Of a stretch of DNA of 64,000 bases, positions 21,419-48,519 are shown one piece after another. The notes beneath the pieces were generated by a model that was given only the letters and a program-made list of their open reading frames with translations, had not been told where the DNA came from and did no database searches. Source of the DNA: Fimicolochytrium jonesii (Eukaryota); contig NW_026515669.1 of assembly GCF_025526975.1 (NCBI RefSeq), positions 1,922,001 to 1,986,000 of the forward strand. Direction: 5' to 3'. Numbering within the stretch: position 1 is the stretch's first letter; each line of letters opens with the position of its first letter. Made by a program: the position numbers and the translations under genes.

Positions 21419-23550
21419 ATGACTCAACTCTGGTCCGCAGACAACAGGGTCCCCCTCTTCGTATTCGGCCTCACTACAGGCATCGCCCTCACCGCTGCAG
21501 TCCAATATCTCGTCACAAGCATCTCAGGCACCCCGCTGAACCTCCGCGCCGCTGCCGATGAAGATCGCGACCACCGCTCCTCCTCCTCCTCCTCCTCACA
21601 ACAAGGCCCCGTCGCCCAACGCAAGAATGTCGAAACTGCCACCCAGCGTCTCGAGCGCCAGTTCACAATCTCCACCGCCATGCTCCATAACCTCGTCAAG
21701 GCCTTCATCCGCGACATGGAGCGTGGCTTGAAACGCGACAACGCTGTCATGAAGATGATCCCTTCCTATGTCATCCGTAGACCCACCGGTGACGAGACCG
21801 GAACGTACCTCGCTCTTGATCTCGGTGGAAGTAACTTTCGTGTCTGTGAATGCACTCTCGCTGGGAAAGGACAGGTCCGCATCCGCCAGAAGAAGTTTGT
21901 CGTGTCCGAAGAGTTGAAGACCGGCACCGCCACCGCCTTGTTTGATTACTTTGCCGAGTGTGTTAGTTCCACTATGGATGGGTTTGGCTTGGATAAGCAG
22001 GCCGGCACGAAATTGGGTTTTACCTTTTCCTTTCCGGTTCAGCAGCAGGCTTTGAATAGAGGTGAGTGACCGAGCCGGCGAGCGACGAGCGATAGCGAGT
22101 CCACTGTAATACCGAGCGCTAGCGAGGACGAACGCAGTGAGTGCGAGCGAAGCGAGTTCCGCGCCGCAGGCGCAAGTCTAGGCGAGCGTAGCGAGCCCCT
22201 GTCTTAAACCGTGAGCGACAGCGAACAATCGCTTTTATTACGCATCGGCGACCAACATCCTCGTCGCGAGCGGAGCGAGCAGCATATCGTTGGACCATCC
22301 AACCATCTTCAACCATACCGTTCAACCATCATCCATCATCCATCCGCATCCATCGATTTCTAACTCCGCCTCTTCAATCCATAGGAACCCTGTACCACTG
22401 GACAAAGGGCTTCACTGCTGAAGGTGTTGTTGGCCAGGATGTCGTGGGTCTTCTTGACGCTGCCTTGCGGAGGAAGGTTGGTTTCGTCTCTCTCCATCAG
22501 CGAGACGTTCGCAACATATGTCCTAACCTCCTTCTTCCCTCGCAAACTAGGGCCTGAAAATCGACGTAACCGCCCTAGTGAATGACACCGTCGGAACCCT
22601 CATCTCGCACGCGTACCTCGACACGGCCACCACCATGGGCGTGATCCTCGGCACGGGCACTAACGCCGCGTACGTCGAGCGCCTGGAAAACATCCCCAAA
22701 TGGACCGGCCCCAAATGCCCTACCAACGAAATGATCATCAACATGGAGTGGGGCGCATGGGGCCAGGACGGGATCATCCTCCCCACCACGGACTACGACG
22801 TGAAAGTCGATCGTGCGAGCCCGAACCCGCAGAAACAGAGTTATGAGAAGATGATCTCCGGGTTGTATTTGGGCGAATTGACGCGGTATATTATAGTGGA
22901 TTTGATCTCCACTGGGGAGCTGTTTGCGGGACGACGGTGTGAGGCGTTGGAGGTGCAGCATAGCTTCGACACGGCCAACATGTCGCGTATCGAACGGTGA
23001 GTCTCCATTCCTTCTCAACGTTTACTTTACCCCCACACAATCCGCCACTGACACATATCTCCTTTATCTCTCCCCCGCCCCCCTTCCCCAGCGACCACTC
23101 AATGGAACTAACAGACACCCGCTCCATCCTCGAGGACCTCTACGCCGTCAAAAAAACCACCCTAGCCGACCGCCGCCTCGTCAAACGCATCTGCGAGCTC
23201 ATCGGAACCCGCGCCGCGCGCATGGCCGCGGTCGGGATCGCGAGTGTGGTCACGAAAACGAATAAACTTGCCGGAACGACGGTGGCGGTGGACGGGAGCG
23301 TGTTTGAGCATTATCCGCATTTTGCGAATCGGATGAGGGATGCGCTGAGGGAGCTTTTGGGCATCAATGCTGAGGGGATTGTTTTGGCTCAGGGTGGGTT
23401 TGAATTTGTGCGGAGGGGTGGTTTGGGGTGACTCTCCGTAACTGATGCTGATCTTGACTTTTTTTTTTTTGGATAGCCCGCGACGGATCAGGACAAGGTG
23501 CTGCACTCATCGCTGCGCTTGCTGACCACGGCGAGGAGAAGTTGCAGTAG
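21419..23550 (+). CDS. Hexokinase/glucokinase with an N-terminal hydrophobic segment
   Basis: Exons 21419-22061, 22385-22476, 22551-22996, 23092-23393 and 23477-23550. Motifs MIPSYV, LALDLGGSNFRV, LGFTFSFP, WTKGF, NDTVGT, GTGTNAAY, INMEWG, EKMISGLYLGEL, DGSVFEHYP and DGSGQGAA. Confidence 0.96.
22064..22290 (+). repeat. Intronic GCGAG/GNA-hairpin modular element, copy A (hexokinase intron 1)
   Basis: Contains GAGCGAAGCGAG, GAGCGTAGCGAG, GAGCGGAGCGAG and GCGCCGCAGGCGC. GTGAGCGACAGCGAAC (22211-22226) is identical to the reverse complement of 47766-47781. Confidence 0.8.
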
Positions 23551-23963
23551 AATTCACGAAATCACCCTTCCCTCATTCGGTTACTGTTATCACCATGCCA
23601 AAAAAATGTCGATTTGGACTCCTCATTCATATTGTCCCCGCCCTGTGTGTCTTTCTGCTACGCTTTTTTCCCCTTCCCAGAGATCATGATGAAATGAAAT
23701 GAACACTGCGTACGGTTATGATAGTTTGGAACGGATCTGCTCCTCGTAGAGAAAAACCGTGCGATGGTCGAATACGAACGGCACAAACAGAGGGGCGACA
23801 AAGAACCGCTCCATGTCGCTCAAAGAACACGCACTCCGGCAACAAAAATCCCAAAAGTCGTCCCCAAAGATCAATTCCTCTAAACCATCCATTTGCAGAA
23901 CATCCCTCCCATAAAATAAAAAGCCAAAAAGAACAAATACCTCTGGCGCCCCCATCCATCACT

Positions 23964-25358
23964 TCATCCCGCCCGCGTCGTCTTCCCCCCCGTCTTGCCA
24001 CCCCCCGTCTTCCCCTTCCCACCCGCGGTCTTGGCCGGCGTCTTGACGGCCCCCTCGTCGGCCGTGGCTGCTTTGCCTGCTTTGGACGCTTTGGGGAGAA
24101 GCACGGCGTGGATGTTGGGCAGCACGCCGCCTTGCGCTATCGTGACCTGCGGGGTGAGCGAGGTGAGCGGGGGTGTGAAAGATGGGTGGGATGCGGAGAG
24201 AAGAGGGGGATGCGGGGAAGAAACGCACCTTGTGAAGCAACCGATGCAACTCCTCGTCGTTGCGCACGGCGAGTTGGAGGTGCCGCGGGCTGATCCGGGT
24301 CTAATTCACCAAAACCCAAAAAAAAAAGAGAAGAACATCTGGTTAACGATCGGGTGGATATATGTGGTCGGGGGGCGAGGGGAGACGCGCAACGCACCTT
24401 TTTGTTATCGCGCGCGGCGTTGCCCGCTAGTTCCAGCACCTCCGCGGAGAGGTCTAGTGTGACGTGGAAGCGGTGGGGGGAGGAAATGTCAGTGAGGACC
24501 ATCGGAGCGAGGATGGGGAGGGAGGTTTTCGCCCCCCCTCGAATGAATCCATTTTCTCTCGCCCTTGCTACCCATCATCGGGGGTTTCCTCCCACATGGG
24601 CGAATACTCACCGAGGGAAGCTACGGAGAGAAGAGAAGACTACTTACATTCGAGCACGGCAGCGAGGTAGATCGGCGCACCGCCGCCGATGCGTTTGGCG
24701 TAGTGGCCTTTCTTCAGAAACCTATTCACGCGACCTTTTTTTCGGGAGGGGGGGGTTCCGGAAGTCAGAGATGGGTTTCGTTATATGGACTGTTGTCCAC
24801 GGCTGTCGTAGGGGTGAATGGGACAGCCCACGACGTACCGACGGGGAATTGCAGGCCTGTAGGGGCGCAGAATTGAACAGGTGAGGGACCCGGGCGGATA
24901 TGCCCCCGCCCAAGACAGTGGTGGTTAGCTCTCCCGTCTCACTTACCGGCACGGTCAGACCGCGACGTCATCTTCCCTCGCACCGTACGTGGACCCTAGC
25001 CATTCCACAAAGTCAGAAACGGGGAAATCAGCAAACCAAACCATGTCCGCCAAACGAAACAGCACAGCCCGGTGGAGAGTCGGGTGTGGGTGGACTCACC
25101 CGCGGCTTGCCGGCTTTGGCGAGGAGGGCGGAACCTGCATATGCGAGCAAAGGATGAGCGTGTGTGGGGGGTGATATGCAACGAACCAGGACCTCCCACT
25201 CCCGCGGCCTTTGCCATCCCGTCCACCTTATGTGTCGCCCGTATGCACGCACACCCTCACACAGAGAACCGACCACCCCTCCCGACGTTGTGTAGGCTAC
25301 CTTCTTTGACGGTCTCGACCATCGTGCGCGCGTTCTTGAGGTGGGCGGGCTGCGACAT
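23964..25358 (-). CDS. Histone H2A variant, 8 exons
   Basis: Exons 25358-25301, 25134-25100, 24995-24947, 24856-24839, 24734-24648, 24453-24398, 24300-24229 and 24146-23964. They splice in frame to ...[103 protein letters not shown]...[10 protein letters not shown]. Confidence 0.93.
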
Positions 25359-25846
25359 GGTTTTTCCGGGTTCGAGCAAGTGGCGGTTTATGGATGGATC
25401 TAAGTCGAATGGGGGAATGGGGGAGGTATGGGACAAAGGGTTTGCAAGTGTTGATCGATTTGTAGAAGACAAACAGCGCAGGGGACTGTTTACCTTTTAG
25501 TGGTGATGTCGGCGGGTTGTGGGGTGGGCAGAACGGTGTGGAGAAGCCACGGCTGGTGTTTATCTCTGTGAGATTGACAGCCGGCTGTTGCTTAAGTAAG
25601 TGCGCGAGCCCGTCAAATCACACACCAACGGCTCTTTTTTCGGGCACTGCGTAGTTCCCTCGCAAACTTTCACATCCACTCCACACAAGATGCCCCAGCG
25701 CAACACCACACGCACCGTTCAAACTCAACCGTGAAGCAGATGCATATTCGACGTATATGTACATTATGATGATGATAAAACTCCCCAAGAAAGTAAAATC
25801 CCCCACTTCTCACCACCCCCAGTCTTGGATAACCTTTCCACACCGC

Positions 25847-27533
25847 CTACTTCGAATAACTAGTCGTAACAACACACTTGATGATCCCATCCTTCTTCTC
25901 ATCAAACAGCGCATACGCCTTCGGCATCTCCTCGAACGGGAAGGTGTGCGTGATGACGAAGGACGGGTCCATTTCGCCGGTTTCGATGAGGTGGAGGAGG
26001 TGCTAGGTGGGATGGAGAGACGGTGGGGTTAGACGTGTGGGAATCCGGACGGGACGGGACGGGCTTACCTTCCAGTATTTTTGGACAAAGACTTGTCCGC
26101 CGCGCATGGTGAGGCCTTTTTCCATCTGCGCGCCGACGGGGTACTGGTTTGCGAGGCCTACCCAACGAAGAAAGGACCGATGCCCGTTAACGCATGTGTC
26201 CAAATGGAGGGTTTCACATCGAGTCGGTACTTACCAGCGTAATCCCCGATCAGCACGACCACCCCACACTTCCGCACACACTTGATACACTCGGCGACGA
26301 CATCCACGCCATCCGTCTCCAGGTTCAACCCGCGCTGGATCGCATGCAGGTAACTCTTGTTATACCGGAATCCGACACAGTCGATCGCGACATCGGGCCC
26401 GCCTCCATTGGCCGGGAAATGCTTCATGAGCGTCTCGTACACATCCTCCTTCGCAAAGTCCAGCGGCACACACCCGATCGACCGCGCAACCTCCAGCCGC
26501 GCAGCGACGGTGTCGATCACGACCACCTTCTTGGCCCCGCGATGCAACGCCCACCGTGCAGCCATGAGCCCCACCGGCCCGGCCCCCCACACCGCGACGG
26601 TGTTGCGCCCTTCGGCGGACGAGACTTCGCCGAGGTCTACCCCGTGCCATCCCGTGCACGCGATGTCGGAGAGGACGATGCCGTGCGCGTCGGAAACGCT
26701 GTCTGGGAGAGGGAGGAGGTTGACGTTGGCGAAGGGGACGCGGGCGATCTCTGCTTGGAGGCCTGTTCCGAAAAAAAAAACCCCCCAAAGAATAAATCAA
26801 CATGAATTGTCCATGATCAACACCCCTCGTCGACATTGCCCCGACCCGCCCAAAAGAGCGTTGTTAAGCTCCGCACGCACCATCATACCCGCCCAACAGA
26901 TGCGAGTACCCAAAGATGCCCGCGGAATGGTGGCCATACAGATACGTCATGGTCCCGGAGTTGTTGGTCGTCTCGCAGCTCGAAAACAGCTCCTGCTGGC
27001 AGAACCAGCACTCGCCGCACCCGATGATCGCGGATATCACCACCCGCTGCCCGACGTGCAGGTTCGTCACCTCCGCCCCGACTTGCTCGATTATGCCTAC
27101 GGCTTCGTGCCCGAAGACGTCGTGCTGCATGGGCATGGGTTAGTGGGGTGGGGAAATGGGGAGGGAGATAGGGTAGGACAATCGAGGGGTTTGGGTCTCC
27201 GCACCTTCTCGATCTCGGGAATCTGCCGATGATACAAATGCAAATCGCTCCCGCACACCGTCGTCGCCGTGATCTTCACAATCGCGTCCTTGGGGTGGCT
27301 GATCATCGGGCGCGGGCGGTCGACGACCCTCAGATCCTTCTTGCCGTAGAATTCCTATATATATCCGAGAGGTGAGCAAAGCAAGCTGATGGGGGAGATA
27401 GTTGACGGCCGGGACGCAGTACCAGAGCACGGGTCTTGAGAATCGGATCCTTGATGCTGACGGTAGGCGTCGCGGTCGGGACGGTGCCGACGAGCTTCTC
27501 CGGGAGGGAGCCGATGTAGTTTTGGACCTGCAT
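25847..27533 (-). CDS. Zn-dependent medium-chain dehydrogenase (formaldehyde-dehydrogenase-like)
   Basis: Multi-exon. Motifs KITATTVCGSDLHLY, GHEAVG, CGECWFC..C, GIFGYSHLLGGYDG, SDIACTGWH, VWGAGPVGL, GPDVAIDCVGF and C-terminal KDGIIKCVV. Confidence 0.92.
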
Positions 27534-28475
27534 TGTTGTGCCTTTCGGTTTCTTACTTCTGTGGTTTTGGTAACGGTGCGGATGTTGCGACTATATCTCG
27601 TGCGATGATGGATGGCTTCGAACGAACTCGGAGGACGTCCCTCCACCCCCCACCCCCGCTTTTTATACCCCCCACCCTTCCCATCCACAGCGGCATTCAT
27701 GCCATCCCGTTATCCCGCAACGCCGCCAGAACAGGTTCAAACCCCGCCGATTGTGCGGGAAATCGCAGGGTGTGAAGTGACAGCAGAGTGACAGTTCGGC
27801 GGGGCGCGTCAAGGTGTCGTCATTTCCGCGTCTTTCCGGGGAGGGGACCGGACCGTGTTGTTGATTTGGGGTTTTCGTAGGTGGTATGGCAAGGGACGGG
27901 TGGAGGAGGTTGCGGGATGTGGGGTATGGCGCATGTCCGTCTGCGGCATGCATGCCCGTGATGCCACAAATTACGGTATATAGAAGCGGGAATTTAGGAA
28001 TTTAGGTCCGAAGCCTCGCAAGTCGCATGAAGTGGATTATATGTAACCTGACATCATACAATGCATCGGCAGCGAGCTCTTACATAGCCTCCGACAAACG
28101 GCCTGAAGCTAAGTTGCTCAGAGCTGTGAGTTTCGTCTTTCCTCAGCCAAGCCACATACAAAAGCAGCGAATAAAGAGTTCAAGTCCTGGGGATCGAAAA
28201 GTCCATGCGAAGGTGGAGTGGGGGATATGGGAGACACAAAACAACACCGCAATTGGCACAGAGCCTGCTATATTTGTATGATTCTCAATTACGTTTGTAT
28301 TGTTATTCCGTTTCCCGAATATGCGGGGTGGGGAGAAGACGAGATCTATCCTCGCAGCGATTTCTATAGGCCCGTCCACCATTCTGCACAGCTTTGCTAC
28401 AATCTTTCTACGTCCATTCACAATCCCAATCGCCGCGCCGGTGTGCGTAAGTGAGATATAGTACCTCCCTACACT

Positions 28476-29609
28476 CTACTCCTGCTTCTCCCTCTGCGCC
28501 CCACCCTTCTTCCTCCGTTCCTTATTGTACTTTGTCGAGTTCCGCACCGCCTTCCGTCTTTTCTGCAATTTGTGCTTGTTCATCGCCTTTCGGCGTCGTT
28601 TGAGGATGCTGATCGCGTGCATTGTCTTGTCTTCGGTGGTGGATGCAGGTGCGTCGCCAATGGCTGTGGTGCGTTTCGCAGCGAATTTGTAGATCCGGCC
28701 ATGTCTCCCACTGCGACCACGGATGAGGGAAGCGGCGGTGGGGTTGGAGACACGCGGACCCATTTGGAAGGCGTCGAGAGCGGCGGCAACGGGGTCGGAG
28801 TCGTCGATATTGTTTTCTGGGCCGAAGGTATCAAGCATCTGCTGCTCGGTCAGGCCCAACTGCGCTTTGGAGTCCACTAGCATGCACGCAAGGACCTCTG
28901 CCGTGTCCTCATCGACGGGTTCCAGCGTCCTCGGGTTCGTGAAGTCGCGGTCCACTACAGCTTGTTTCGCAAGCGTTATCGGATTCGTAACGGAGGAGGG
29001 CGGTGGGGAGAGAGAGGAAGGGAGAGGTTGCGCGATGCGTTTACTCGCGATATATTCAGACACGGTGTCGAGCGGGTGTTTAGGCCGTTTCATGCGAAGC
29101 TGAGCTTGAGAGACGATGGCTTGTGGGCCCGTGGGGTAATGCGGGGCGCCGAATGTGCGCAGGGGGGTGGAGTAGGGGACGGTGCCGAAGATTTTGCAGT
29201 ATTCGTCGTTGTAGAGTGCTAATACCCGCTTCTCGCCAATTCGTTCGATCAGGTGTCGAAGATGTGGGCCTTCAGCAAACATATTCCCCGTCGGCCCCAT
29301 CGTGGTTGGCGCCGCCGTCTCACCCCTCCTGGCAGTCTCAATCTGCACGACCGCCTTGGCACCATAACTCTTCAAATTCAAAGGTCTATGTTCTGCAAAA
29401 AACGCCGCATGGGCAAACAACCGGTCGTTGGGGTGAGGTGCAGGGGGTGTGTTGCCCTTTTGAAGTTGGAGGGTGGTTGAGGGTTGTGGGGCGGCGGCGC
29501 GGATCCCGTTTCGGCCGTCTGTGATGGGCCGTATTTGGGAATGGCGGAGGCGGAGGGAGCGGCGGGAGGCTGCTGATGGGACGCGGGATGTGCAGCGGGT
29601 TGATAGCAT
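28476..29609 (-). CDS. Mitochondrial mS38/Cox24-like protein (DUF1713 C-terminus)
   Basis: Arg-rich presequence-like N-terminus, an internal FFAEHRPL motif and C-terminal MHAISILKRRRKAMNKHKLQKRRK. Confidence 0.8.
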   Translation of the reverse strand: MLSTRCTSRVPSAASRRSLRLRHSQIRPITDGRNGIRAAAPQPSTTLQLQKGNTPPAPHPNDRLFAHAAFFAEHRPLNLKSYGAKAVVQIETARRGETAAPTTMGPTGNMFAEGPHLRHLIERIGEKRVLALYNDEYCKIFGTVPYSTPLRTFGAPHYPTGPQAIVSQAQLRMKRPKHPLDTVSEYIASKRIAQPLPSSLSPPPSSVTNPITLAKQAVVDRDFTNPRTLEPVDEDTAEVLACMLVDSKAQLGLTEQQMLDTFGPENNIDDSDPVAAALDAFQMGPRVSNPTAASLIRGRSGRHGRIYKFAAKRTTAIGDAPASTTEDKTMHAISILKRRRKAMNKHKLQKRRKAVRNSTKYNKERRKKGGAQREKQE

Positions 29610-31005
29610 TGTTGCTGGATGTGGTGTGGTTTGGCTAGCGCCGACTCAGGCCGTCGAGTCCAGTGTCCTTCGATATGCGCCGCAGTTCTAGAGTATTGTC
29701 CTAAATCAGGAGTAGCAAGCGGGGTCTGAGGAGGCCGATGATCTGCCTTCCGGATGTTGTTTGTTGTTTGGGTGGCAGTTGAGGAAAGACCCGTCGGCAG
29801 TCAGTCGCTCAGCAACGAGACATTGCGGTCACGTGCGCTGTTCATCTTCTGCATTAAACCAACTCGCTCACTTTGCCACCATGCAGCTCCACCCAATACG
29901 CAACGGCCAGCACTGGGCAGAGGAGTGAGACGACACGCCACCAGGACATGCGATTAGGGGATATCCTAGGACTAGGACCCGGACGCCGAGTTGGAATGCC
30001 GCGACAGGAAGTCGGGGGTTAAAACTGGGAGGAACATTCGTGAGACTGACTGCTCCGTCCATTTGATTCATTCGCGTCGTTTCTGAGATGAGGATTCGGA
30101 CGGAGATTTGTCGCATGATTCATTTGCCGGCAACAGGAGGGATATCAATGGAGATCACCAGCACTACAGGACGGACGAGCAGGGCATTCAAAGAGATTTC
30201 GTTGCCGCCCATTATCAGTACATTTCACCAGCAGTCTCTAGCGGAAGGATGGGCAGGGGCCATACGGAGCTTGCCCCGACGCCTACGACTTGCTTTTGCA
30301 TTTGCAAAACTCGCACTTCCGCATATGCCACGCTGAGAAGGACATTGGCGGAATGTAGTGCAGTGATGTGATATGGAATGGATACTCGTGCCAAGGTAGC
30401 ATATACAGTATCTACTAATATGCAACCTCTGACGACGTGCGCAGAGAGCTAGCAACGCGCGACCATGGGGCACGAGTAAGGCTTTTGTTTACTCCATCCG
30501 GCCGTGTTCCCCGGGAGTCGCAGTCCACGTTTTCATCAGGGAGCTGACGAAGTTTGCTGTTTGTCCGATTTCAGTTGTGGACTGAATTTGAAGGGTGCAA
30601 AATTGATCTGGCTGGGTGGCGGCCCCCCCCCCCTAATTCATCATAAGGATACATATTTACAGTAAGTGAGGGATCCGAGTGTAACATCCAAGTGCGGCGG
30701 GTGATCACTTTTGACAGGGCCCAACCCCCAACCCCTCCAGATTGATTAGGAAACGGGTGCAGAATCTAAACAGAAAGGACGGCCTCCTTCTTGTTATGCG
30801 GCTAAGAAACAACGAAAGAGACAAAAGGCCCTCGTCGCCGGCCTTTCCCACGACTCCCGCACATTCCCAACCAACACCCTCATCACCCCACTGCTTCGTC
30901 GTCGGCTGGCCCGTACGTCCTCGCTCTCGCCGTCGCTCACTGATACCATATAGAGTCATAGAGTTTCACACACACCCCAACCACAACCCCCAACCACAAC
31001 CAAAA

Positions 31006-32485
31006 ATGCGCTCCGCACTCTTCGCCCTGGTCGCCGCCGTCGCAGGCTCCGTAAACGCAATCACTGTCCTCGAAGCTCTCCGCGCAAACGCTGGGACCGC
31101 CCAAGTCGCCGCCGCCATCGCTGCTCACCCGGAGTGGGCCGCTGCGACCCCAAAGACCTTGATTGTTCCTACTGATGCGAGCATTGTCGCTGCGAGGGCA
31201 AGGGGGAATCTGGCCCCTACGGATTTGGGATTTGTTTTTTTGCCTACTGCTGTGGACCATAGGGATAAGGCTAACTACAAGGTAAGGCCGAGTGAAGGGA
31301 CCCGAGCGGGTGCGACCCAAGGGCTGGCGACCCGAGCGTTAGCGAGGGCGTTTGGTTTCGGTCAGGGAATCCGAGCGTTCGTGAGGACGACCACAGCGAA
31401 CGCTCGGACTGGGACGAGGGGAGCGAGGCGCAGGGATCATTGAGGAAGGCGAGCCCTAGGCGAGCCACATTGCGCCTACGGCGCTAGATTTTCCTCACCT
31501 ACGCATGGTTTCAACCATCCAACCGTCGCTTGTTTGTTTTCCCACGCCTCGCTCATCCAACTGACCTTTGCTTCGCGTCGGCTTGCTTCTATTGTCGCAG
31601 GTCTTGAAGGCCCCCCAGACGGCCCTTCTGTTCGACAACTACGTTCCCGCCGGCCCACCGGAGATCCACGTCCGCTCTTCCACCCAGCAGGGCCTCATCA
31701 CCAAGGCCGTCAACTGCGATGACGGTTTCTTCTACGTTTCCAACATCCCCTTTGAGGCCGCGGTTGTGCCCTCGAAGGCAATCGTCGCCAACCCGGCCGC
31801 CACCTCCTTCCTCGCTGCGTTCACCAAGCTTGGACTGGTCGCCACCCTGGACTCGCTGACCGATGTGACCATCTTTGTCCCCACGGAAGCCGCCATGGCC
31901 GCCGCCGCACCCGCTCTTGCCGCCTTGACCCCTAACCAGCTCGCCTTTGTCCTGGCCACCCACATTGTCCGCCCCGCCAAGTTCAGCACGGAGCAGGACA
32001 ACGTCGCCATGACTTCCCTCAGCGGCCTCGCCCTCCCATACACCGTTGTCGGTGAGACCGCTTCCCTCGGCGGTGCCGCGATCGGAACCCTCGTTGACGT
32101 GCCCACCTCCGCTGGCGCCATCCACACTCTCAACTCCGTCATCATCCCCGGTGTCGCCAACCTGCCCCCCGCCGCCCCCGGTGCCCCTACCATGTTTGGA
32201 ACCATCCCCATCGTCGCCGGTGGTGCCACCGCACCCAACTCCACTGTTTCGTCCGTCGTCGGTAACCCCACCACCTCTTCTACCGCGACCGTGACCAGGC
32301 CCATAACATCCTCCCGCGTTACTGCCGCCGCGACCCGCCCCGCTGTCGCTACCAGCGTTGCACCTGTTGTGTCTGCGACTCCGTCGGCGGCTGCCACTGC
32401 ACCTAACTCTGGCGCCAACTCTATTGCTGGGTCGTTTGCGGTTGTTGCTGCTGCGGCTGCTGGTGTCGTCGGTCTTGCCTTTTAA
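31006..32485 (+). CDS. Secreted, probably GPI-anchored fasciclin (FAS1) domain protein
   Basis: Signal peptide MRSALFALVAAVAGSVNA and a phase-0 intron at 31282-31600. FAS1 motifs TLIVPTD, VTIFVPTEAA, LATHIV and GAIHTLNSVIIP, then an S/T-rich stalk and hydrophobic C-terminus. Confidence 0.85.
31284..31525 (+). repeat. Intronic GCGAG/GNA-hairpin modular element, copy B (fasciclin intron)
   Basis: Several CCGAGCG/GCGAG units. CCACATTGCGCCTACGGCGC (31465-31484) matches the hairpin module of copies C and D. TTCAACCATCCA (31510-31521) is shared with copy C. Confidence 0.7.
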
Positions 32486-33272
32486 AGGTGACATTTTCCC
32501 CATATCATAGTTTACACATGGCGTCACTTTTAGTTTTGTGAGACGGCGTAGAACATTTCATACAGTAGATGTGCTCTTTGCACAGACAATTTATCCCCCT
32601 CCATATTCCTCTACCCACCCACCGTATATACAGGCCTATATGCATAGATAGATGGGGAGTGGTATCACACAGTTCTGTCATGTTGAATTCGCATCAATAT
32701 AGTCATAATCCGAGTTCAGTCCGTTGCAAGACGTTCAGCTTTCCTTTGTTCTTTTGTTTCGTGACCCGACACATATTTGGTGAGTTCAAACATCGGATTA
32801 TGAGCAGTACGAATAGGGAAAAACGAGGGGGAGGGGGAGGGGGGGAGGAGGGGGGGGGGGGGGGAGTATATTGTATCTGAGCAAGAGGTAGTGAGAAGTG
32901 GGATGGGAGAAGGGATGATTTCCAACTGCCAACGGGAAAGAGCGGAAGATATTGCGGGGAAACGCACGCGAGATGTCTATCACGGGGGAACCCAGCGGGA
33001 ACCCGCTTCGATGGTCGGCACGGAACTTGGGCAAATGTGTAACTCCCCTCGTTGACACTCCGGCCCCTCATCAGCCCCCAAGTCGTCCCAGATACCGCAT
33101 ATGTAGCGGGAGGCCATCCACCCGGCACGACAGAATCCACCAGCGGCTGGGAAGTCTATACATCAACTCTGCGGACATCTTCAGTGCAGCGTTGCCTGCC
33201 TAGCGAGTGTGGCGTGTGCACCTCTCTGATTCCAGGCTTGCGCTCGGTGGAACTGGGGCCTCGGGGCTGTTT

Positions 33273-37047: not shown

Positions 37048-38262
37048 TTAGGCGCGCTTGAGGATCCAGTCGATGTAGTGTTGGATGATTGCGTCTTGTT
37101 CCGTGTCGTTGTGGACTGGGGAGAGATGAAGAGTGTTGTGCAAAGATCAGTTTCTCCCCCTAGTCCCAAATGCGGGATGAAACCCCAAACTCACGTTCAT
37201 GCAACCCTCCCTTGACGACCTTCCACTCCTTATCGCTGCTCCCACACTTCTCCGCCCACTGCTCCGCCGCCTTGAACGACACGATCTTGTCCTCGTCCCC
37301 ACAGACAACCAACACCGGCAGCGAGAAACTGCCCGCGGTCTTGGCCAGCTTCTCCCCATTCAGCACGCAGCTCGCCGCGGTCCCGAACGACGTGTACGCG
37401 TGCACGAGCGGGTCGGCGCGGTAGGATTCGCGCACGGAGGGGAGGTGCGAGAGGTTGGCGTCGTCGACGGTGGATTTGATGGTGAGGGTCGGAAGGATTT
37501 TGGAGAGCCCGCGGATGGCCCAGTATTCGGGCGTCGAGACGGCGGAGTTGGGCCCGAGGGCGATTAGGGGCGCTGGGGGATGAGGGGAGGGGAGAGGGTT
37601 GGGTTAGTGAGGAGAAGTAGATGGATGGTTGAAGGATAATCAGCTGCCGACGAGGAGATTTGGGCGATGATGGGCAGGAGCGGTGATCGTGCTCGCTTCG
37701 CTCACAAAAGATCTGACGCTCGCTGAGGCTCGCTAAAAACTGTGTCAGGGGTGTTGCGCCTCCAGCGCAATGTGGGCTCGCTTCGCTCGGTAATTAGAGT
37801 AGAATCGCTTCGCTCCCGATACTCACATGAAACGACAACCCCAGCCAACCCCTTCTCACTCCCCTTCCCCATCGCAAAGCTCAACGCAATCCCCCCACCC
37901 ATACTATGCCCCATCAAAAACCCTTTAACCCCACTCTCCCTACTCCTCTCCACACAAACACCCACATCCTCCATCAGCCTCTCCCACCCCTCATTATGCC
38001 CCAACGTCGCCTCCTTGACCACATCCTTGTGCACCACCGTCTGCCCAAACCCGCGCTGGTCGAACCCGCGCACCTTGATACCCGCGACCGCGAACTTGTT
38101 GAAGACGTGGTCGTACCGCCCGACGTGCTCGCCCATCCCGTGGCAGAAGGCGACGGTGGCCCGCAGCGGGGTGCTGCTGGGGGGCGACCAGATGCGGTGG
38201 TAGATGGGGGAGGGAGAGGGGGCGTGGGTGGTCCATTCTTCGGTTATGATGGCGGTGGACAT
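37048..38262 (-). CDS. Monoglyceride lipase/lysophospholipase (alpha/beta hydrolase, Yju3-like)
   Basis: Exons 38262-37827, 37572-37195 and ~37115-37048. Motifs HGMGEHVGRY, FDQRGFG, GHSMGG, YRADPLVH, GDEDKI and GLHELHND. Confidence 0.9.
37620..37820 (-). repeat. Intronic GCGAG/GNA-hairpin modular element, copy C (lipase intron 1)
   Basis: Three GAGCGAAGCGA units. The 28-bp block 37706-37733 is identical to 47844-47871, and 37751-37775 matches 47804-47828 at 22/25. Confidence 0.85.
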
Positions 38263-40100: not shown

Positions 40101-40499
40101 ATGCACTTCACAACCCTCACCATCCTCCTCGCCTTCCTCTCCCTCGCCGCCGCTCAATCCTCCAACAGCGTCGTCCTCGGCCCCTGCACCGTCGGCGCCA
40201 CCTGCGACCTCATCCCCGCCGCCTCCACCACCGCCTCCGCCGCCGCGCCAACGGGCAGCCCCATCCTCACCCGTACCACCAACAGCACTGCAACACGCGC
40301 AACCAACGGCACCACCTCCGTTGCTGCTGTACCGACGCGGGACCCGCTGCCGAGTATCAGCTATGTGGACCCGTTGAGCATGACGATGACGTTTGGAGCG
40401 GGTGCAACGCATTTGTCGAGTGGGGTGGAAAGGGTGGGGGGCATGGGGTGGGCGGCAGTTGTGGCGGCGGCTGGGGGCGTTGTTGTAGGGCTCTGGTAG
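40101..40499 (+). CDS. Small secreted Ser/Thr-rich, probably GPI-anchored protein
   Basis: MHFTTLTILLAFLSLAAAQ signal peptide, two Cys, a Thr-rich region and a hydrophobic C-terminus. Confidence 0.75.
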   Translation: MHFTTLTILLAFLSLAAAQSSNSVVLGPCTVGATCDLIPAASTTASAAAPTGSPILTRTTNSTATRATNGTTSVAAVPTRDPLPSISYVDPLSMTMTFGAGATHLSSGVERVGGMGWAAVVAAAGGVVVGLW

Positions 40500-41516
40500 A
40501 GATGATTTGGGTGCTATCCACAAGTTTTTGTTTTTGTGTTTCTGTTTCCGAGGGGAGCGTGGGAGTGTCCCCTTGGGACATCGGCCGTGCGGTGCGGTCA
40601 GCGCTCGAATCCACATCCAAGACGGCGCAACTGGACAACGTTGCCAGGCAATCCCCGTGAAACCAGCCGCTTATCATCCCCCTCCCGCCGCCCGCCCGCA
40701 CCTTTATCCGTACCGGCAATAGAATGAGGAGCCCCCCGATGGCAGGCCACCGGGATCCCATCTCACCTCACGTCACAAGCCGCTCAGCTATCCGAAAGCC
40801 TTATTCATACGCCGAATACGACCGAAGTTAGGACCTAGATAGAAACCTTCTCATATACATTTTGTACAGTAAACGAGCTCTTCTTATATACAGTATATGC
40901 AATCGCAAGGTGTGCGTTTCAAATCGAGAGAATGGCGAATGGGCTGTGATTTGTGCTGTTGGAGGTCGTTTGATACATGCTTGATACAACGTTATTCCAA
41001 TGTGTTGATGGATGGATTGGGCATCCGAGGCGCACTCTCGGATGTAGGATTTTGGATTTGAACATGTCCGGCATGAAAGCTCCCCGGTTGTGCGATTGCG
41101 AGAACGTTGAACAATGGAGACCACATGGCCGCTGCAGGCTAGTGGAGTTAACCAGGAAACGAAAACGCTACGACGACTCAAGCAAACCTTAACAAAAGCA
41201 TATGGCGCCAACCGCCTAATAATCGATAGCAATTCGGAAGTGAGACTTTTTTTGTGGTTTGTGAGATGAATTTGAGGAAGTATGAAAGGTGAGGTAAGGT
41301 CTCTCAGCCTCGCTAGGCTGTCAAGCTCTTCGTTGCTTTGTTGAGGTCCCGACGACGGTCGGCGTTTTTCAACTTATCGTTTCGATAGCGGATACACACC
41401 TACCTTCTATCACATCCCTGGAACGACCACATAATCTTCACCTCAATCAAGAACAAATACCCGAGGTCTCCACCACCACCAACACCTACTCACATCCTTC
41501 ATCCAAAGCCCACAAA

Positions 41517-42059
41517 ATGCGATCTCCAACCCCCTTCACCCGCCTCCTCCTCGCCGTCCTCCTCCTCACCCTAACCCACGCCCAAATACCAATCCAACCC
41601 TGCGACATCAAGTGCATTCTTATCCCGGGGTGCTGCCCCGACTTCCCGTTGCCCGTACCCGGACATCCCGCGACGATCGTACCACAGCCGGGCGTAACTA
41701 TTGTGGTTGGCGGTGGTGGTGGAGGGAGCGGTGGGGGGTTGGCGACCGTGTCGATTGTGAGGCCGTCCAGGACGACGGAGAAGGTGGTGATTACGGCGTC
41801 GACGAGCGCGGGGGGGAGTCAGAGCTCGGCATTGACGCCGACGCCGACGGAGAGGGTCATCGTTGTTGGGGCGGGGAGTGTGAGTGCGAGTACACCGGCG
41901 AGTGCTAGTGCGACGAGTGCGACGCCTGCGGCGGCCACGTCCGCGGATTCGGCGACGAGTGCGGGGTCGCTTGGCTTTGATGCCAAGTTCGGTGCGGCTG
42001 CTAGTGCGGGCGGGATCGCGGTGATGGCGGGTTTATTCGTCGCTGCGGGGGTCGTCTGA
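41517..42059 (+). CDS. Small secreted Cys-containing, probably GPI-anchored protein
   Basis: Signal peptide, CDIKCILIPGCC, an S/T/A-rich stalk and a hydrophobic C-terminus. Confidence 0.75.
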   Translation: MRSPTPFTRLLLAVLLLTLTHAQIPIQPCDIKCILIPGCCPDFPLPVPGHPATIVPQPGVTIVVGGGGGGSGGGLATVSIVRPSRTTEKVVITASTSAGGSQSSALTPTPTERVIVVGAGSVSASTPASASATSATPAAATSADSATSAGSLGFDAKFGAAASAGGIAVMAGLFVAAGVV

Positions 42060-42859
42060 TTCGATTTGATGCCGTAAAGCCTACGACGGAGTGCTATCCT
42101 TTCACATAGACATAGATAGACATTGACTCGCATCCCCTCGCCTCTCATCACTCTGCATATCCCGTACACTTTTGCACGAAGTGGATGTAGAAAATTTGTA
42201 TCCTTCTCTTTTTGTCACCATGGCGAAGCTTTCTCTTGTCATAGCCCGCATCTCTTGATATATAGCCCCGCGGAGTACATGGAGAAACGCTGCACATTGA
42301 GTTGATTCTCTACTCGTATTGACAGCGATATGGAACATCAGTTGCGACCGGCCTCCTCCTTTCCTCCAGTGCATTTCTTTTGCACATGAAAAAGTCATCC
42401 AGGCCGACAGTTCTGTTGGTGAATGAGTCATTCAACGCGCTGTCGATTTGGTATACTGACCACACTCCGCCCTTGGCCATCCCGCCGTAACCTACGCTTT
42501 CCAACTCTATCGGAGCTGTGCATTATTGAGCATCCGCCATTTAAGGTTTCCGTGGCCTTCCCGCGCATTCGATCCATTTGTCCTCGCACTACCATCAAGC
42601 TCCCTTCATATCGCATCCTTCATCGCTGTCACAGAGCCAAACAGACGGTCACTTGTTGAGAGACAAGTAAACACTCTCATTTTCCACCTCCTATCCCCTT
42701 CCCATCCTGTTACTTGATACCACTTACCGGAAAGCTGATGGGGACAGGGAAGGCGGACGTACGGAATCAACAACCAGAACATCAGAGGCGTAATACGAGC
42801 ATAGTAGTCAAGAGAACGACGACGAGCGACAACATCAACATTCGGTACCCATAGCAACC

Positions 42860-45800
42860 ATGGGTGGAGCAGACTACAAGAAGAACGCGTAAGTGCGACG
42901 AGGGCAGCCATTCGGTTCAAAGCTTCCGCCGAACAATCAAGCCGCCACGGAAACTCACTAACTGCTTCGTATCCTTGGTCCAACTTCAGTGGCTTCATAG
43001 GAGGAATCAGTCTCCTCATCAGCAGTGTCACGGGACCGGGAATCCTCACCATCCCGCTGCTCTTCCAACAATCCGGGTGGCTATTGTGAGTGTGAATTCA
43101 CCCGTCGCGGTGAGCGAAGAGGTCTTACTGATAAGCCCCTGCCGCCCGATTCGATTCAGACCAATAGTATGCTTCATCGTCATCGCATTCCTCTCCGGCC
43201 TCGGCTGCCTGTTCCTTATCGAGAGCATGACGTATTTTCCAGGGAATGAGAAGTTTCAGGTGCGTGGAGGCGTCTTCCATGCATCAGGAGGCGTTGGTGC
43301 GAATACTAACGCTATTTGGTCATTTGGGTATGGTTTGGATCGAGCAGAGAAACGTCGAGCTGACTGTCTTGGTGCATCAGGTAAGGTTCTGGAGCTGCGA
43401 GCATCTGCGTCCTTTCCCATGTGGGAAGTCTGGGGATCGAGCAAATGGAGAACACGCCTGGATGGTTTTGGGAGGATCGAATGAGTTGAGGAGGACTTAG
43501 AAACCGGCGGTGGAGGCGGTGAAGCGACAATAACGACTAAAGCGCAGGCAAACAACATGCACCGCAGCAGATCGAAAACATATCCCGTCGTCCAATCCAT
43601 CGACCGCTTAACAAAACCCTTTTTCCGTTAACCCACATAGTTCTACGGGCGCAAATGGTACTACCTGATGCACGTCGTCCTCTACGGCTCCCTCCAATCC
43701 TTCAACATCGCCTCCATCATCTCCGCCGCCCAGGTAAGTAAACTGTCTCCCACCCACTCCCGACACCCACTCACCCATCTCATCTCAAACTAGACATTCG
43801 ACTCCTTCCTAATAACCCTAGCCGGCCAAACATGCGGGTACGGCATCAGCCCGCAGGCGGGCTTCATTTGCGTCAGCGAGCAGACGAATTCGAATTCGCC
43901 GTTTGGGGATAACTATATGTTGGCTACTGCGGGGTTTATTGTGAGTTTGATGGAGTCAAGATGATATCCCCAGGAGAGGAGCTGGATTGAAAGAATTTTT
44001 TGGGGGGGAAACAGCTACTGCTAGTCCTCGTGATCCCGCTCATCTCGCTGAATCTGAACGATAACCTGATCGTCCAACTGCGTAAGTTTATCTTGACACC
44101 GACGCAGTCACTTTTTTTCTTCGACTGCTGATATTCCTTTCCGCAAAGTCTCCGTGGTCTACCTCGCCTTCGCCATCTTCATCTACGTCTGCATCGCGTT
44201 GGCCGTTGGCCTCAACAATGCTGGGATGAAGACGATCGGGAATGATATGACGCCTGTGTTGGGGACTGTTATGTTTAATTACAGTTGAGTTTCTGTCTCT
44301 TTTGGGGTATTGGTTGTCCCAGTCCCCCATGATTGGTTGTTTTGACTGACCGACTTCTGCTTGTTTGCGTAGCGCTGGCGAATACGGTGCCTAGTTGGGT
44401 TAATACGAAGGTATACGACGAGGCTGGGAAAGAAGAGGGTGGCTGGGTGGGCATGGAAAACTGATGGGTCCACTTGATCGTGTCGTTACAGCACAAACGG
44501 GTCCCGATCGCGAAAACCATCTGGTACTCCGTCTGGATCTCCACGGCTCTGTATATCGTCATCGGCATATTCGGTATGTTCCCCCAGCCATCGCCGCTCT
44601 ACTTTGCCCGCTTTGCCCGCTTTGCCCATCCCCATCCCCACCCTGACCAACACCTCTCATACCACAGGCGGCGCCGCCTTCCCGATGCCCGACGACTCTA
44701 ACCTGATACAAGCGGTCAGCGCCAGCACGAACGTGTCGCAGTCCGGCAAGAACATCAATGCGCTGATCAACGTCACGTACCCGATCTTGGTCCTGCTGAC
44801 GTCTATACCGGTGTCGATCATTATCGTGAAGCTGAATTTGGTGTCGAGTCGGTTGTGTACTGGATGTGAGTTGGAGCCCAACATGATTTCGCAAAAGGGC
44901 AGCAATGTTTCGCATGGGTTGATCATCTTTTCGGATTTCATCACACAGCATGGGCCCAATTCTGGGCCGCCGCCGTCCCCTTCCTCGCGGCCCTCCCCTT
45001 CCAAACCGGCGCCTGGATCACCGTCTTCTCCAACTGGACCTCGCTCATCTTCCAATCCACCTGCAACTTCGCCGCCCCCTTCCTCGTCTACCTCTTCCTC
45101 CACAAGCGCAACATGGTCATGCAGCAGTCCGTCCTCGACGAACTCGAGTTCCTCGACTTGGATGCCGGGATCAAGAAGTGGAGGGATGATGATGATGATT
45201 TCGATTATGTGTACCATCTTCCGCACGCGGATCTAACACGGTTGGGGATGAGGAGGTATAACCCCTTCGAAAACGCGGTGGGCGCATCGCAGGCGAGTCT
45301 CGGGCACGGGCTCCACGACCCAACCGCAGCGGGGGGCGGCGGCGGGTTAACGGTCCCAGGAGCGGGTGGGCTCGCCCCACCGGGCGCAATGCAGTCCCAG
45401 TTCCTGTACCGCGGCCGCGGCGGCGGGGTCGGCCAATCCGTGTCGGCGCTCTCAACCGCGTCTGGCCAGTCCGCCCGGCAGCTCATGAAACAGATGCTTG
45501 GACCGGGCGGTGATCGCCCGCCACGACGTAAACTGGGCGCGCAAGGTGGGGCGGTGGGAAGCGACGGCGCAAGTGTCATGCTCGGCGGCGCACAGTCCCG
45601 CCGCACAAGTTTGGGCGGGTCCGGGCTCAACCTCGGTGTACCCGGCGGCGGCCCGAACGCCCCCGGCGCCCGCTCCCGGCGGATGTCCCTAATCAGCGGA
45701 GGGGGCAACTTGAACAAGATTTTTCCCGTGTCCGACATGGACGACCTTGAAGCGAAAGGCACCGACGGGAAGCGGTTGGACGCGGATATGGCTGCGCCCA

Positions 45801-45961
45801 GTTATATTGTGGAGGACGTGACGGGGGAATTGGGGCAGTTTCGCGCGATGCCGTATTGGGTTACGAGGCGGGTGAGCCCGAGGGTGGTGGCGGGGGTTAG
45901 TTTGATGATTATGATGAGTGCGGCTCTTGTGGTGCTTGTGTTGGATATTAAGGCCGGGTGA
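42860..45961 (+). CDS. Amino-acid transporter family membrane protein (many short exons)
   Basis: Exons encode GGISLLISSVTGPGILTIP.LFQQSGW, LFLIESMTYFPGNEKFQ, VELTVL, GTVMFNY..ANTVPSWVN.K, TYPILVLLTSIPVSIIIVKLNL and WTSLIFQSTCNFAAP, then a long cytosolic loop and a final TM helix. Confidence 0.8.
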
Positions 45962-46444
45962 TGATTGGATCTGCGGTGGTGTGATGGTCGGATGTTTGGG
46001 ACAAGGGACGGGGGCTGATTCATGAACGCTATGGATGGTCGGCGAAAACCCGTGTTCGGCGGGACGGGTGCTGTCAAGGACCTTCTTTTCTGTATAGTGG
46101 AATTTTTCGTTTCCTTCTTTGTTATCTTCAACCTTTTTTTTCCTATTTGAAGGGCATTGGTCCTCGTATTGTCGCAAAAAATGAACGTTCGGATTGCAGA
46201 CGATGGACATACAGTGGCAACATCTTTGATTTTGGTTATACAGGTTGCCGATACGATTTTCTACGCTACATAAGTTCCGTTTCCCCTCCATGATCTCCCT
46301 TTTCATATGTTCAACATCGAAAAGCTCGATCCACTTCCCTGCTCCGCCCAACATTGGTTTCTTCCTTCCTCCCTCTTTTACCATTGATAGTGTCCGCCCG
46401 TCAACGAGCCAAAGAATGTACTTTTGAGTGCTCGATTATTGATA

Positions 46445-48519
46445 TCACTGCTGCTCGGCAGCGGCGGCAGCAGGTGCGTCCGTATTAGCAATGGCGGTTT
46501 TGCCGGCGGACTTGGCGTACTGGTCTGGGTATGCCTTTTGGAATTTGTCTTTCAGTGACAGAACTATGTTTGATGGGGGCAAAGAAGGGATTATTCAGCG
46601 AATCATAAAGAATGGTGGCAATCGGCAGCGCAATGGTCAATACTCACGAGTCTCAGTCCCACTACCCTTAATCCCCGTCACGCCCGCCGTGCTAGGAGCC
46701 GCAGGCGCAGGAGCACCCGCCAACCTCGCACTAGTACGTCTCTGCGGAATCAACGTAGTACCTCCAGGCGACCGCGGGATATTAGTCTTGCGAAGCCGCG
46801 CATACATCGCCTCCTTTGCAAGGTCTGAAGCGTCTTGGGCGTTGGTGGAAGTGTTCTCGGTGAGTGGTTTTGTGGAGAAGGAAGGCGGTGTGGGAAGGTC
46901 GTTTTCTTTGTCTTCTGAGGGGGTTGGGGTGGATGTGGGTTCGATGGGTTCGGCGGCGATGGCCACGCTTTGGGGAGCTTCGAAGGGGCTGGAAATAACG
47001 TACGACGATGGATTAGCCCTAGCCTCGAGAGTCAAACGTTCACCGGTTTTACAATCGCAATGGTGCAACATACCTTTCAGCATCACTAGTAGGCCCGTAC
47101 GTAGACGCCAGCTGGCTCTTCATACGCTTGAGCGTTTCCAAAGGCCTCGACGACGAGCTTGCCGACCCCGAGCTTGTCGAGCTGGTATTGCTGACCGATC
47201 TAGGGCGGGCTGGCAGCGAGCCAGCGGACGCCGCCACACGTTTGAGGGGGGACTCGACGTAGCTCGCAGGTGCCTTTTTCGACATGTATTGTTTCCTCGG
47301 GCTGGCGTTGATTAGAACATGAGCAAAAAATGCGGAAAACGGGAGGAGCCTCTGTCGAAGAGCGTAACCCTTCCACGCACCTTATATACTGGACAACCTT
47401 CCGCTGGACCCTGCACAGCTCCTGCAACAAGTCACCCATCATCGGTTGTTCTGCAACTCCATTCATCTGGTTCCGTTTCCCTTTGGCCTGAGCGTCAATC
47501 TTGAGAGACGTGTCGGTAGGGATCACGGGTGGAAGAGGTGGGGGTGGTGGAGGCGGCAGCCCTGTGGTTTCGGGAACAGGGATGACGGATTCGAGGCTAG
47601 ACAGACGGCTTTGCAGGTATGCGACGTTGGCCTCGAGTGCCGCGATCTTCTCCGCTTCGTTTTGCTAAACCATTACCCATTAAAGATTAGTTCATCAATC
47701 ATCAACCCATCACTTAGACCACCATCAGCCATCATCGAGCACGATGCATGTGTAAACGAACGACAGTTCGCTGTCGCTCACACTTAGAAACCATGTGAGG
47801 AGAGTGTTGCGCCTTTGGCGCAATGTGGTGCTCGCCTCCCTTGAAAAGATCTGACGCTCGCTGAGGCTCGCCAAGAGCCGTGATCCGGAGCATTGCGCCT
47901 TTTGGTGCAAGGGATTCGCTCTGCTCGCGAAGCGTTTGCGATGGTTGCGCTCGCTATCGGTCGGGCTCACATCGCAAACCAAGGCTCCCCTCATGGGTCA
48001 CCTGTCTCAAGCATCCCTGTGTCTCGCTTCGCTCGCCGCTGTCGCTCGCGGAGGCTTTCGCTCTGATCGCCATCTCTACGCTCGGAGTCTCCTTTCGTAC
48101 CATACCTTCTCCACAATTACAGCCATCTGCTTCCCACTCTCGTCGTCGCTCGCACCAATGTCCTTAGTCTCCACCTCCTCGTCGTCCGCATCACTCCCAC
48201 CGACAAACCCCCACCACCTCCAAGTCCCCTTCAGCACGTCCCACGTCAGTGCAGTTGCAACGAACCCCAGCAAAACGGTAGTCGAAATCGCCGCATAGTT
48301 AACCCAAGCGGACATGATGATCTGCGTTGTCTTGTCGTAGGTATCGAGCGGGGGCAGGGTGTACGCTTCGGGCCCTTCGTCGTCGTAGTCGGAGCTGCGG
48401 TAGGCGTAGGTGTGGTCGTCGTCGCCGTCATTGTCGTAGTAGGAGGATTGAGCGTAGACGTCCCGCTGCTGCGCTGCGAGGCCGCCCGCGATCAGCCAGG
48501 GAATCCAGGTCTGTAGCAT
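46445..48519 (-). CDS. Proline-rich coiled-coil membrane protein resembling the PRR11/MTFR family (5 exons)
   Basis: Intron 1 is 48105-47665 (phase 0). The protein has a TM segment, then [49 protein letters not shown] and LSLKDKFQKAYP. Confidence 0.6.
47761..48075 (-). repeat. Intronic GCGAG/GNA-hairpin modular element, copy D (intron 1 of the PRR11-like gene)
   Basis: Shares an exact 28-mer with copy C, an exact 16-mer with copy A, the hairpin module with copies B and C, and GAGCGAAGCGAG. Confidence 0.85.

Follow-up and report, generated by a model that had tools for sequence, protein, structure and literature searches.

Four long introns, here called A, B, C and D, in a 64-kb window (the whole stretch of DNA analysed) from Fimicolochytrium jonesii, a soil chytrid fungus, carry chains of small hairpins. 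Judged from their alignments, the arrays are copies of a single repeat of 130-320 nt, related to one another and in part decayed, that lie just behind the donor of first introns in four unrelated genes. On a modest balance of probability, they are relics of a non-autonomous mobile element that moved as single-stranded DNA (ssDNA) into existing first introns. An initial annotation, made from the sequence alone, had already described the four long first introns as one related family with a strand and first-intron bias, and both alignment against shuffled sequence and nhmmer agree with it.

Aligned in the same orientation, all six intron pairs score 27-74, above 200/200 dinucleotide shuffles; in reverse orientation the score is reached by 1-177 of 200 shuffles. 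Searches with nhmmer between copies give E values down to 2e-10, with A-C similarity spanning most of the intron and internal repeats present in A and D. When A-D are masked, neither single-intron nor profile nhmmer gives a further copy in the window below E 1.3. The sequence modules named M1 to M4 in the initial annotation can be recovered: M1 is an exact 28-mer shared by C and D, M3 an exact 16-mer shared by A and D, and M2, M4 and the TTCAACCATC tract lie at the positions first given for them. M4 occurs in introns A, C and D as claimed, but is not confined to introns, as one core lies outside at 15738-15748 (minus strand). As the alignments read, homology covers the spacers as well as the hairpins, with their order kept, which supports common descent. 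All four arrays are sense-oriented relative to the transcript, and, for introns drawn by chance, the probability of 4/4 falling in first introns is P 0.0017. The strand and first-intron biases are real in the window, yet they are based on n=4 events.

The common unit of the arrays is stem-[GA]-GC-loop-GC-[GA]-stem, with a tandem G·A mismatch below a GNA or GNNA cap. GNA hairpins had been noticed from the start, but the defining tandem G·A pair with its co-varying outer stems had been overlooked. Exact cores number 16 on the sense strand of A-D (1,337 nt) and 0 on the antisense strand, with 6 in the rest of the window on both strands. Of 25 matches to a strict structural scan across the window, 11 fall on the sense strand of A-D and 0 antisense; control scans in which 8 other independent dinucleotide pairs replace GA return 7-19 matches each, with 0-1 in the introns (TC/TC is simply the mirror of GA/GA). 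Around the fixed GA-GC-loop-GC-GA core the outer stems vary in sequence while pairing is kept. They pair in 12, 10 and 5 of 16 cases against 8.9, 6.9 and 4.0 when permuted (sum reached in 166/20,000), and their covariation score of 0.29 is reached in 2/500 shuffles, both tests being inflated because the units are related and not independent. In a pyrimidine-GA-purine context, tandem G·A mismatches adopt sheared pairing. As the other strand would have TC·TC at this place, the structure would exist on one strand only.

The loops resemble those of DNA mini-hairpins rather than those of RNA. GNA or GNNA loops, which define the core of the DNA mini-hairpins, cap 12 of the 16 exact cores; all four GNA triloops are present (GAA, GTA, GGA and GCA), and the G..A tetraloops of A-D are GNYA in 7/7 cases and GNRA in 0. 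According to PMC13037366, GC-GNA-GC and GC-GNNA-GC are extra-stable as DNA and far weaker as RNA, with GACA, GATA, GTTA and GNA cores listed among the measured DNA mini-hairpins, melting at 69.5-76.5 C for such DNA cores versus 39 C for an RNA tetraloop version, and occurrence at ssDNA priming sites and promoters. The link to ssDNA mini-hairpins made in the initial annotation is thereby strengthened, as the loops fit the DNA series and not the RNA GNRA type. The arrays are not a known Rfam RNA either, with 0 Rfam matches at E<=1 over 21000-49000. Whole-intron RNA folding gives z values of -2.8 for B, -1.9 for D, +0.9 for A and +1.1 for C, and the folding of A and C is unremarkable throughout (z +0.3 to +1.1). 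ViennaRNA was also tried as an arbiter between DNA and RNA and reached no decision; its DNA parameter set presumably lacks sheared-GA terms.

Shuffled module order, as first described, turned out to be mostly wrong, the copies being largely collinear with one duplication in D and some deletions. A degenerate M2 before M1 in D restores the order M4-M2-M1, the C-D alignment across M2-M1-M4 scores 74, and M3 is a variant and counterpart of M1 with a compensated outer pair. A layout of GA hairpin(s), M4, M2, M1/M3 and T-rich tail fits all four arrays, with D duplicated and B lacking M1/M3. Block-permuted orders reach the real score in 0/300 cases for A-C, 0-2/300 for B-D, 2-22/300 for C-D and 6-14/300 for A-B; for A-D and B-C the real order is no better than the permuted one, and a composition gradient from 5' to 3' adds somewhat to the apparent collinearity. 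The collinear block of B and D has a local score of 51 against a shuffle maximum of 27, with nhmmer E values of 1.8e-4 and 3.2e-7 to D. The idea of modularity survives as exchange between copies or constraint on modules, not as shuffling of order: C-D identity is patchy, with an exact 28-nt block beside a 37/60 block, so that exchange or a stronger constraint on the modules is likely. Hairpin breaks in B and D are uncompensated, and the uneven decay (intact candidates A 6/7, B 1/8, C 2/4, D 1/9) is as expected for relics of different age. At 47740-47690 (minus strand), D has a 3' tract rich in GATGG, which is the reverse of the tract in A, B and C, rich in CCATC.

The arrays start 6-18 nt past the donor and stop 100-117 nt short of the acceptor. 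Once the array is removed, 111-126 nt are left, and once the shared tail is also removed about 60-100 nt, which is ordinary intron size. The 3' 30-nt ends are no more alike than those of pairs from 42 control introns (35-93% of control pairs score as high), the 5' ends are alike in B-D only (1/6 pairs), and the last 60 nt of A and C are weakly alike (3% of control pairs reach the score); donors differ among A-D and intron phases are mixed. Introners are recognized by similarity that comes to about 10 nt or less from either splice boundary (PMC9860276), and A-D lack this two-ended similarity, their 3' ends being unrelated in all six pairs. Unrelated 3' ends together with an ordinary-sized remainder indicate secondary insertion and not an introner. 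The initial annotation had likewise held that these were not plain introners, and the supplement of PMC12130899, a survey of 8,716 genomes that favours young families, gives the number of introner families as 0 for F. jonesii and for the relatives shown. At the hexokinase intron-1 site nothing is visible in a protein alignment.

The stated lack of terminal inverted repeats (TIRs) and target-site duplications (TSDs) also holds at the intron ends, where the best 5'/3' inverted match is 7-8 nt with one mismatch and no consistent junction repeat is seen; the TIR-plus-TSD signature of miniature inverted-repeat transposable elements (MITEs, DDE type) is thus missing from the intron ends, the element's own ends being undefined. 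With regard to Helitron-like ends, there is no 12-16 nt TIR and T-runs flank M1, as far as four decayed copies can show, and no terminal direct repeat of the Replitron type is visible in the alignments of the four copies. Inverted pairs, as in REP, BIME and REPIN sequences, are absent (0 antisense cores), and a GTAG/CGTC foot was not seen by reading.

The same hairpin vocabulary recurs in viral and prokaryotic DNA. A two-hairpin pattern occurs at at least 121 viral loci. Among the matches listed, 109 non-redundant viral loci hold further GA hairpins (78 on the same strand, 10 opposite), the 13-mer M2 core (8 on the GA strand, 0 opposite) and the M3-type hairpin (5 on the same strand, 0 opposite), and this one-strand vocabulary lies in non-coding DNA. 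The M4-plus-M2-core pattern was found at 29 viral and 120 prokaryotic loci, many of the latter being discarded as one Streptomyces coding stretch, and matches of 30-46 nt to intron A lie in unrelated prokaryotic and viral loci. Over all loci retrieved, the G..A tetraloops comprise 8 GNYA and 1 GNRA. In the genes neighbouring such loci (79/101 frames scanned), 3/14 viral loci adjoin a rolling-circle Rep gene, of microvirus type in two cases and Rep_trans in one, 1 adjoins RepL and 4 adjoin terminase; the 28 prokaryotic loci are mostly intergenic repeats, one of them beside a plasmid Rep3 gene. These loci were picked by motif, and the likeness is therefore one of analogy, not ancestry. The M1 and M4-M2 patterns gave 0 matches in viral contigs, and blastn of intron A against phages and of intron D against plasmids found nothing.

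Several other matches were set aside: 6 viral matches to the M2 pattern are without GA cores, the 2 metagenome matches to it both come from one coding stretch in a prokaryote-like gene and are attributed to chance, and none of 12 viral loci with a donor-plus-hairpin pattern can be recognized as an intron. A special link to protein-primed polB viruses was rejected, the gene being present in 2/43 viral records only, and the position of viral arrays near contig ends (15/78 against 4.2 expected), possibly due to assembly breaks, was not used as evidence. Among individual loci, GA hairpins, M2 cores and M3-type hairpins are interleaved in two clostridial arrays (L192 and L195, at about 1450-1600), the spacer being constant at 6 nt; these arrays adjoin a 23S_rRNA_IVP four-helix gene. 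Seven loci from several phage groups (L250, L251, L253, L254, L268, L272 and L275) hold non-coding clusters of GA hairpins and M2 cores, four of them beside terminase, and at locus L104, in a viral contig, telomere-like CCTAA repeats stand directly ahead of a GA-hairpin array.

In the favoured mechanism, the hairpins would act in ssDNA and would be read by a helper enzyme, predicted to be of the HUH type. The element would insert into pre-existing ordinary introns, in which the only free space may lie between donor and branch point. A polar ssDNA join would place its folded strand in the non-template strand, and the target would be that same strand, exposed by transcription near the 5' end of the gene; from such a target, sense orientation and 5' position would follow. 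Local duplication, deletion and exchange between copies may have led to the mosaic identity. HUH transposons bind hairpins, insert in fixed orientation and may use host-made ssDNA (PMC10288648). Of the two options offered by the initial annotation, regulatory RNA fits less well than relics of an ssDNA element, although mobilization by an HUH enzyme is the conjectural part.

Several results weigh against such relics. No free intergenic copy was found by nhmmer in the window, which is odd for a DNA element. Given the host genes (with 1, 2, 4 and 4 introns), the first-intron pattern has a P of about 1/32, and the 4/4 sense orientation a P of 1/16. The G-skew upstream of the four donors (0.18-0.73, the mean of the others being 0.17) is matched by element-free first introns. 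The 67 window frames scanned contain no transposase, HUH or helicase domain, nor a RAYT; no RAYT/Y1 transposase lies within 1.5 kb of the 28 prokaryotic look-alike loci, and no whole-element homologue was found in the viral, phage, plasmid, prokaryotic or metagenome collections searched. The exact 28-mer beside the 37/60 block and the near-intact A also fit selection in place. Finally, ViennaRNA prefers the sense over the antisense strand by 1.4-3.0 kcal/mol with RNA parameters (6/6) versus 0.3-0.8 with DNA parameters, which leaves room for a role as RNA.

Some of these points would be accommodated by a host-maintained intronic element, with hairpins that fold in non-template DNA or nascent pre-mRNA and tune transcription, R-loops or splicing, and with copies spread by gene conversion and kept by selection. 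Exclusive first-intron and sense placement without intergenic copies, outer-stem covariation, modules better conserved than spacers, and RNA folding parameters that favour the sense strand all suit it, and GNA hairpins do act at ssDNA promoters and priming sites (PMC13037366). This explanation is nevertheless considered unlikely, as most hairpins of B and D are broken without compensation, whole-intron folding is ordinary for A and C, GNRA loops and Rfam matches are missing, 10/14 modelled first introns have no array, and the host genes of A-D have no evident common function. A combined scenario is tentative and rather doubtful: an element written in the hairpin vocabulary of ssDNA replicons would target the exposed non-template strand, and its best-preserved copies would have become a strand-folding host signal. 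If true, it would represent a REP-like ssDNA repeat system within the spliceosomal introns of a eukaryotic nucleus.

Degenerate introner-like elements (ILEs), that is, whole introns made by one family and then decayed towards ordinary introns, would need no targeting rule to give 4/4 sense and intron-only placement; the arrays start close to the donor, A and C are similar over most of the intron (weakly so in the last 60 nt), and fungal ILEs are long, structured and degenerate (PMC3609843). Such an origin is quite unlikely in view of the 3' 30-nt ends unrelated in 6/6 pairs, the 5' ends unrelated in 5/6, the differing donors and mixed phases, the ordinary-sized remainder, and the absence of families in this species, although in a survey that favours young ones. 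Least probable is local self-templated expansion by slippage or template switching on a strand-specific hairpin seed in each intron, with the likeness of the arrays due to shared vocabulary and not to descent. The vocabulary is indeed widespread and convergent, as the matches to intron A in unrelated prokaryotic and viral loci illustrate, and A and D do hold internal repeats; against this, unlinked genes share non-hairpin spacers, an exact 28-nt block and the order of the modules, at the nhmmer significance given above.

In their working the arrays resemble REP/BIME sequences, Helitron-like elements and mitochondrial double-hairpin elements, yet they cannot be assigned to any of them by diagnostic features. 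The DNA mini-hairpins d(GCGNAGC)/d(GCGNNAGC), found in phage G4/ssiA priming sites and N4 promoters (PMC13037366), have identical cores and depend on one strand, whereas the chytrid units are extended by tandem G·A and outer stems, chained, and set in nuclear spliceosomal introns. REP/BIME/REPIN sequences with RAYT (PMC3733652, PMC3116915) are also short imperfect hairpins in composite arrays, non-autonomous and decaying, with tandem higher-order units; the chytrid hairpins, however, run head to tail on one strand instead of in inverted pairs, are eukaryotic and intronic, and show neither a GTAG/CGTC foot nor a RAYT in the window or at the 28 look-alike loci. HLE1, HLE2/Helentron and Replitrons (PMC11417382, PMC10288648) are HUH elements of eukaryotes that contain hairpins, insert in a specific orientation and usually leave no TSD. 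In the arrays, by contrast, neither TC...CTRR ends nor 12-16 nt TIRs nor direct repeats at the termini can be defined; they are made up of numerous small GA hairpins where those elements have a single terminal stem-loop, and they sit in first introns only.

Introners and fungal ILEs (PMC9860276, PMC12130899, PMC3609843) likewise comprise related long introns in unrelated genes with fixed orientation and degeneration, but the chytrid similarity does not extend all the way to the two splice ends together, the species counts 0 families and folding is not uniformly low-energy. Double-hairpin elements in the mitochondria of chytrids and fission yeast (PMC10085805) are GC-rich hairpin repeats, present in Chytridiomycota and thought to be mobile, for which no enzyme is known; they are found in mitochondria, are short, have two hairpins and are mostly intergenic, while the present arrays are in the nucleus, comprise many hairpins and keep to one strand.

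A literature search that did not reach most subscription journals gave no account of intronic arrays of this type; the 11-mer is listed for 16 papers, all on unrelated subjects by title. Eukaryotic intronic elements are usually strand-neutral or avoid the sense strand. A sense-fixed, first-intron family of ssDNA-type hairpins, if true, would suggest that elements in eukaryotes can insert into DNA exposed by transcription or, alternatively, that the folded non-template strand is a regulatory feature. Repeats of this kind are removed by design in an introner pipeline. Should the arrays be merely HLE2-like relics, their value would be that of a new transposable element family in a little-studied phylum. 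The insertion-target and the regulatory reading are both testable, since the F. jonesii assembly is public, relatives are sequenced and Spizellomyces punctatus is transformable.

The four introns and the features of their arrays are collected in the following table.

Introns A-D and their hairpin arrays in the 64-kb window of F. jonesii
Intron	Feature	Position	Strand	Details
A	First intron of hexokinase	22062..22384	+	323 nt; gene 21419-23550; exon map of P0001
A	Hairpin array	22070-22281	+	Best-preserved copy; 6/7 GA-hairpin candidates intact with GNA/GNNA loops
A	Four tandem-GA hairpins	22084..22157	+	Loops GATA, GCTA, GCA, GAA
A	M2 core	22161..22173	+	13-mer; 5-bp hairpin with GCA triloop
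A	GA hairpins	22181..22280	+	Loops GTA, GACA (M3, 22211-22226), GGA
A	TTCAACCATC tract	22321..22330	+	Probable 3' part of element or C-rich intron tail
B	Sole intron of fasciclin-domain gene	31282..31600	+	319 nt; gene 31006-32485
B	Decayed array	31288-31487	+	1/8 candidates intact with GNA/GNNA loop
B	Block collinear with D 48093-47983	31364..31466	+	Non-hairpin spacers included
B	M2 hairpin, spacer, TTCAACCATC	31465..31519	+	
C	First intron of alpha/beta hydrolase gene (monoglyceride-lipase-like)	37573..37826	-	254 nt; gene 38262-37048; exon map of P0121
C	Array	37817-37690	-	Mostly collinear with A; 2/4 candidates intact with GNA/GNNA loop
C	M4 GA hairpin, then M2	37751..37790	-	
C	M1 28-mer	37706..37733	-	GA hairpin, CTCA loop, T-run; same as D 47844-47871
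D	First intron of uncharacterised 461-aa gene	47665..48105	-	441 nt; gene 48519-46445; exon map of P0124
D	Array with duplicated M4-M2 sub-unit	48087-47765	-	1/9 candidates intact with GNA/GNNA loop
D	Degenerate first M2 hairpin	47893..47910	-	Upstream of M1; missing from the initial annotation
D	M1 28-mer	47844..47871	-	
D	Second M2 (47804-47828), spacer, M3 (47766-47781)	47766..47828	-	

Exon maps of annotated F. jonesii proteins identify A, C and D as first coding introns, and the model of the gene holding B is based on an open spliced frame plus a Pfam Fasciclin domain. For all four, first intron is meant by coding exons, and further introns may lie upstream in the 5' untranslated region. 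The label PRR11-like, given at first to the gene of intron D, was dropped, its protein being annotated as uncharacterised and having no Pfam or Atlas match. The first exon of hexokinase has 100% identity to an F. jonesii protein, with the next-best matches in Geranomyces, Powellomyces and Spizellomyces. Gene modelling in the window yielded 15 genes, which together have 63 introns (14 first introns), and these counts are approximate because 2 doubtful models were left out, several genes are unmodelled and 3 hand-set models have boundary errors. Introns A-D (254-441 nt) are longer than most of the remaining 59/63 (median 83 nt, range 60-259), as had been stated, but one further long intron exists (about 259 nt, fourth in its gene), which has no hairpin core.

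Splitting A-D at internal donor-like sites, as in gene-finding output, is contradicted by the annotated proteins for A, C and D. M1 in C (37732-37706) is flanked by AG and GTGAG in the manner of a micro-exon that the annotation does not use; a 27-nt micro-exon was rejected, as P0121 is without those residues. Donor-like GTGAG words lie inside the arrays at 22137, 31381, 37705 and 47781, in two cases at a GA-hairpin base. Cryptic splice words were also considered as a cause of the strand bias and discarded (branch-like words 5 antisense versus 2 sense, donor-like 2 antisense versus 6 sense).

Besides the arrays, the window holds other repeats. A 192-nt element at 2716-2907, with 29-nt terminal inverted repeats starting and ending in TA, is a probable MITE of the Tc1/mariner type, unrelated to the arrays. 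The lone M4 core outside the introns shares a stretch of 160 nt (15690-15846) with a direct repeat of 18 nt and an inverted repeat of 29 nt; no Pfam match falls in this region. On the minus strand at 17985-18240, a pair of similar units of about 173 nt, exon-intron-like in build, stand in tandem, and a 34-bp hairpin with a 4-nt loop and 88% complementarity is found at 18731-18802, in a region with no identified gene. A partial M4-like word at 43086-43159, in the second intron of a transporter-like gene, and a small palindrome at 55893-55915, in an alpha-glucosidase intron, have no nhmmer score. At 57886-58060, between the start of the alpha-glucosidase gene and the next gene, lie tandem repeats that contain CCAAT-like words and have a unit of about 64 nt. 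In the modelled genes, GC skew runs from C-rich at the 5' side to G-rich at the 3' side in 28/31 intron-preceding exons of at least 150 nt, possibly reflecting exon-scale self-pairing or a chromatin-linked bias.

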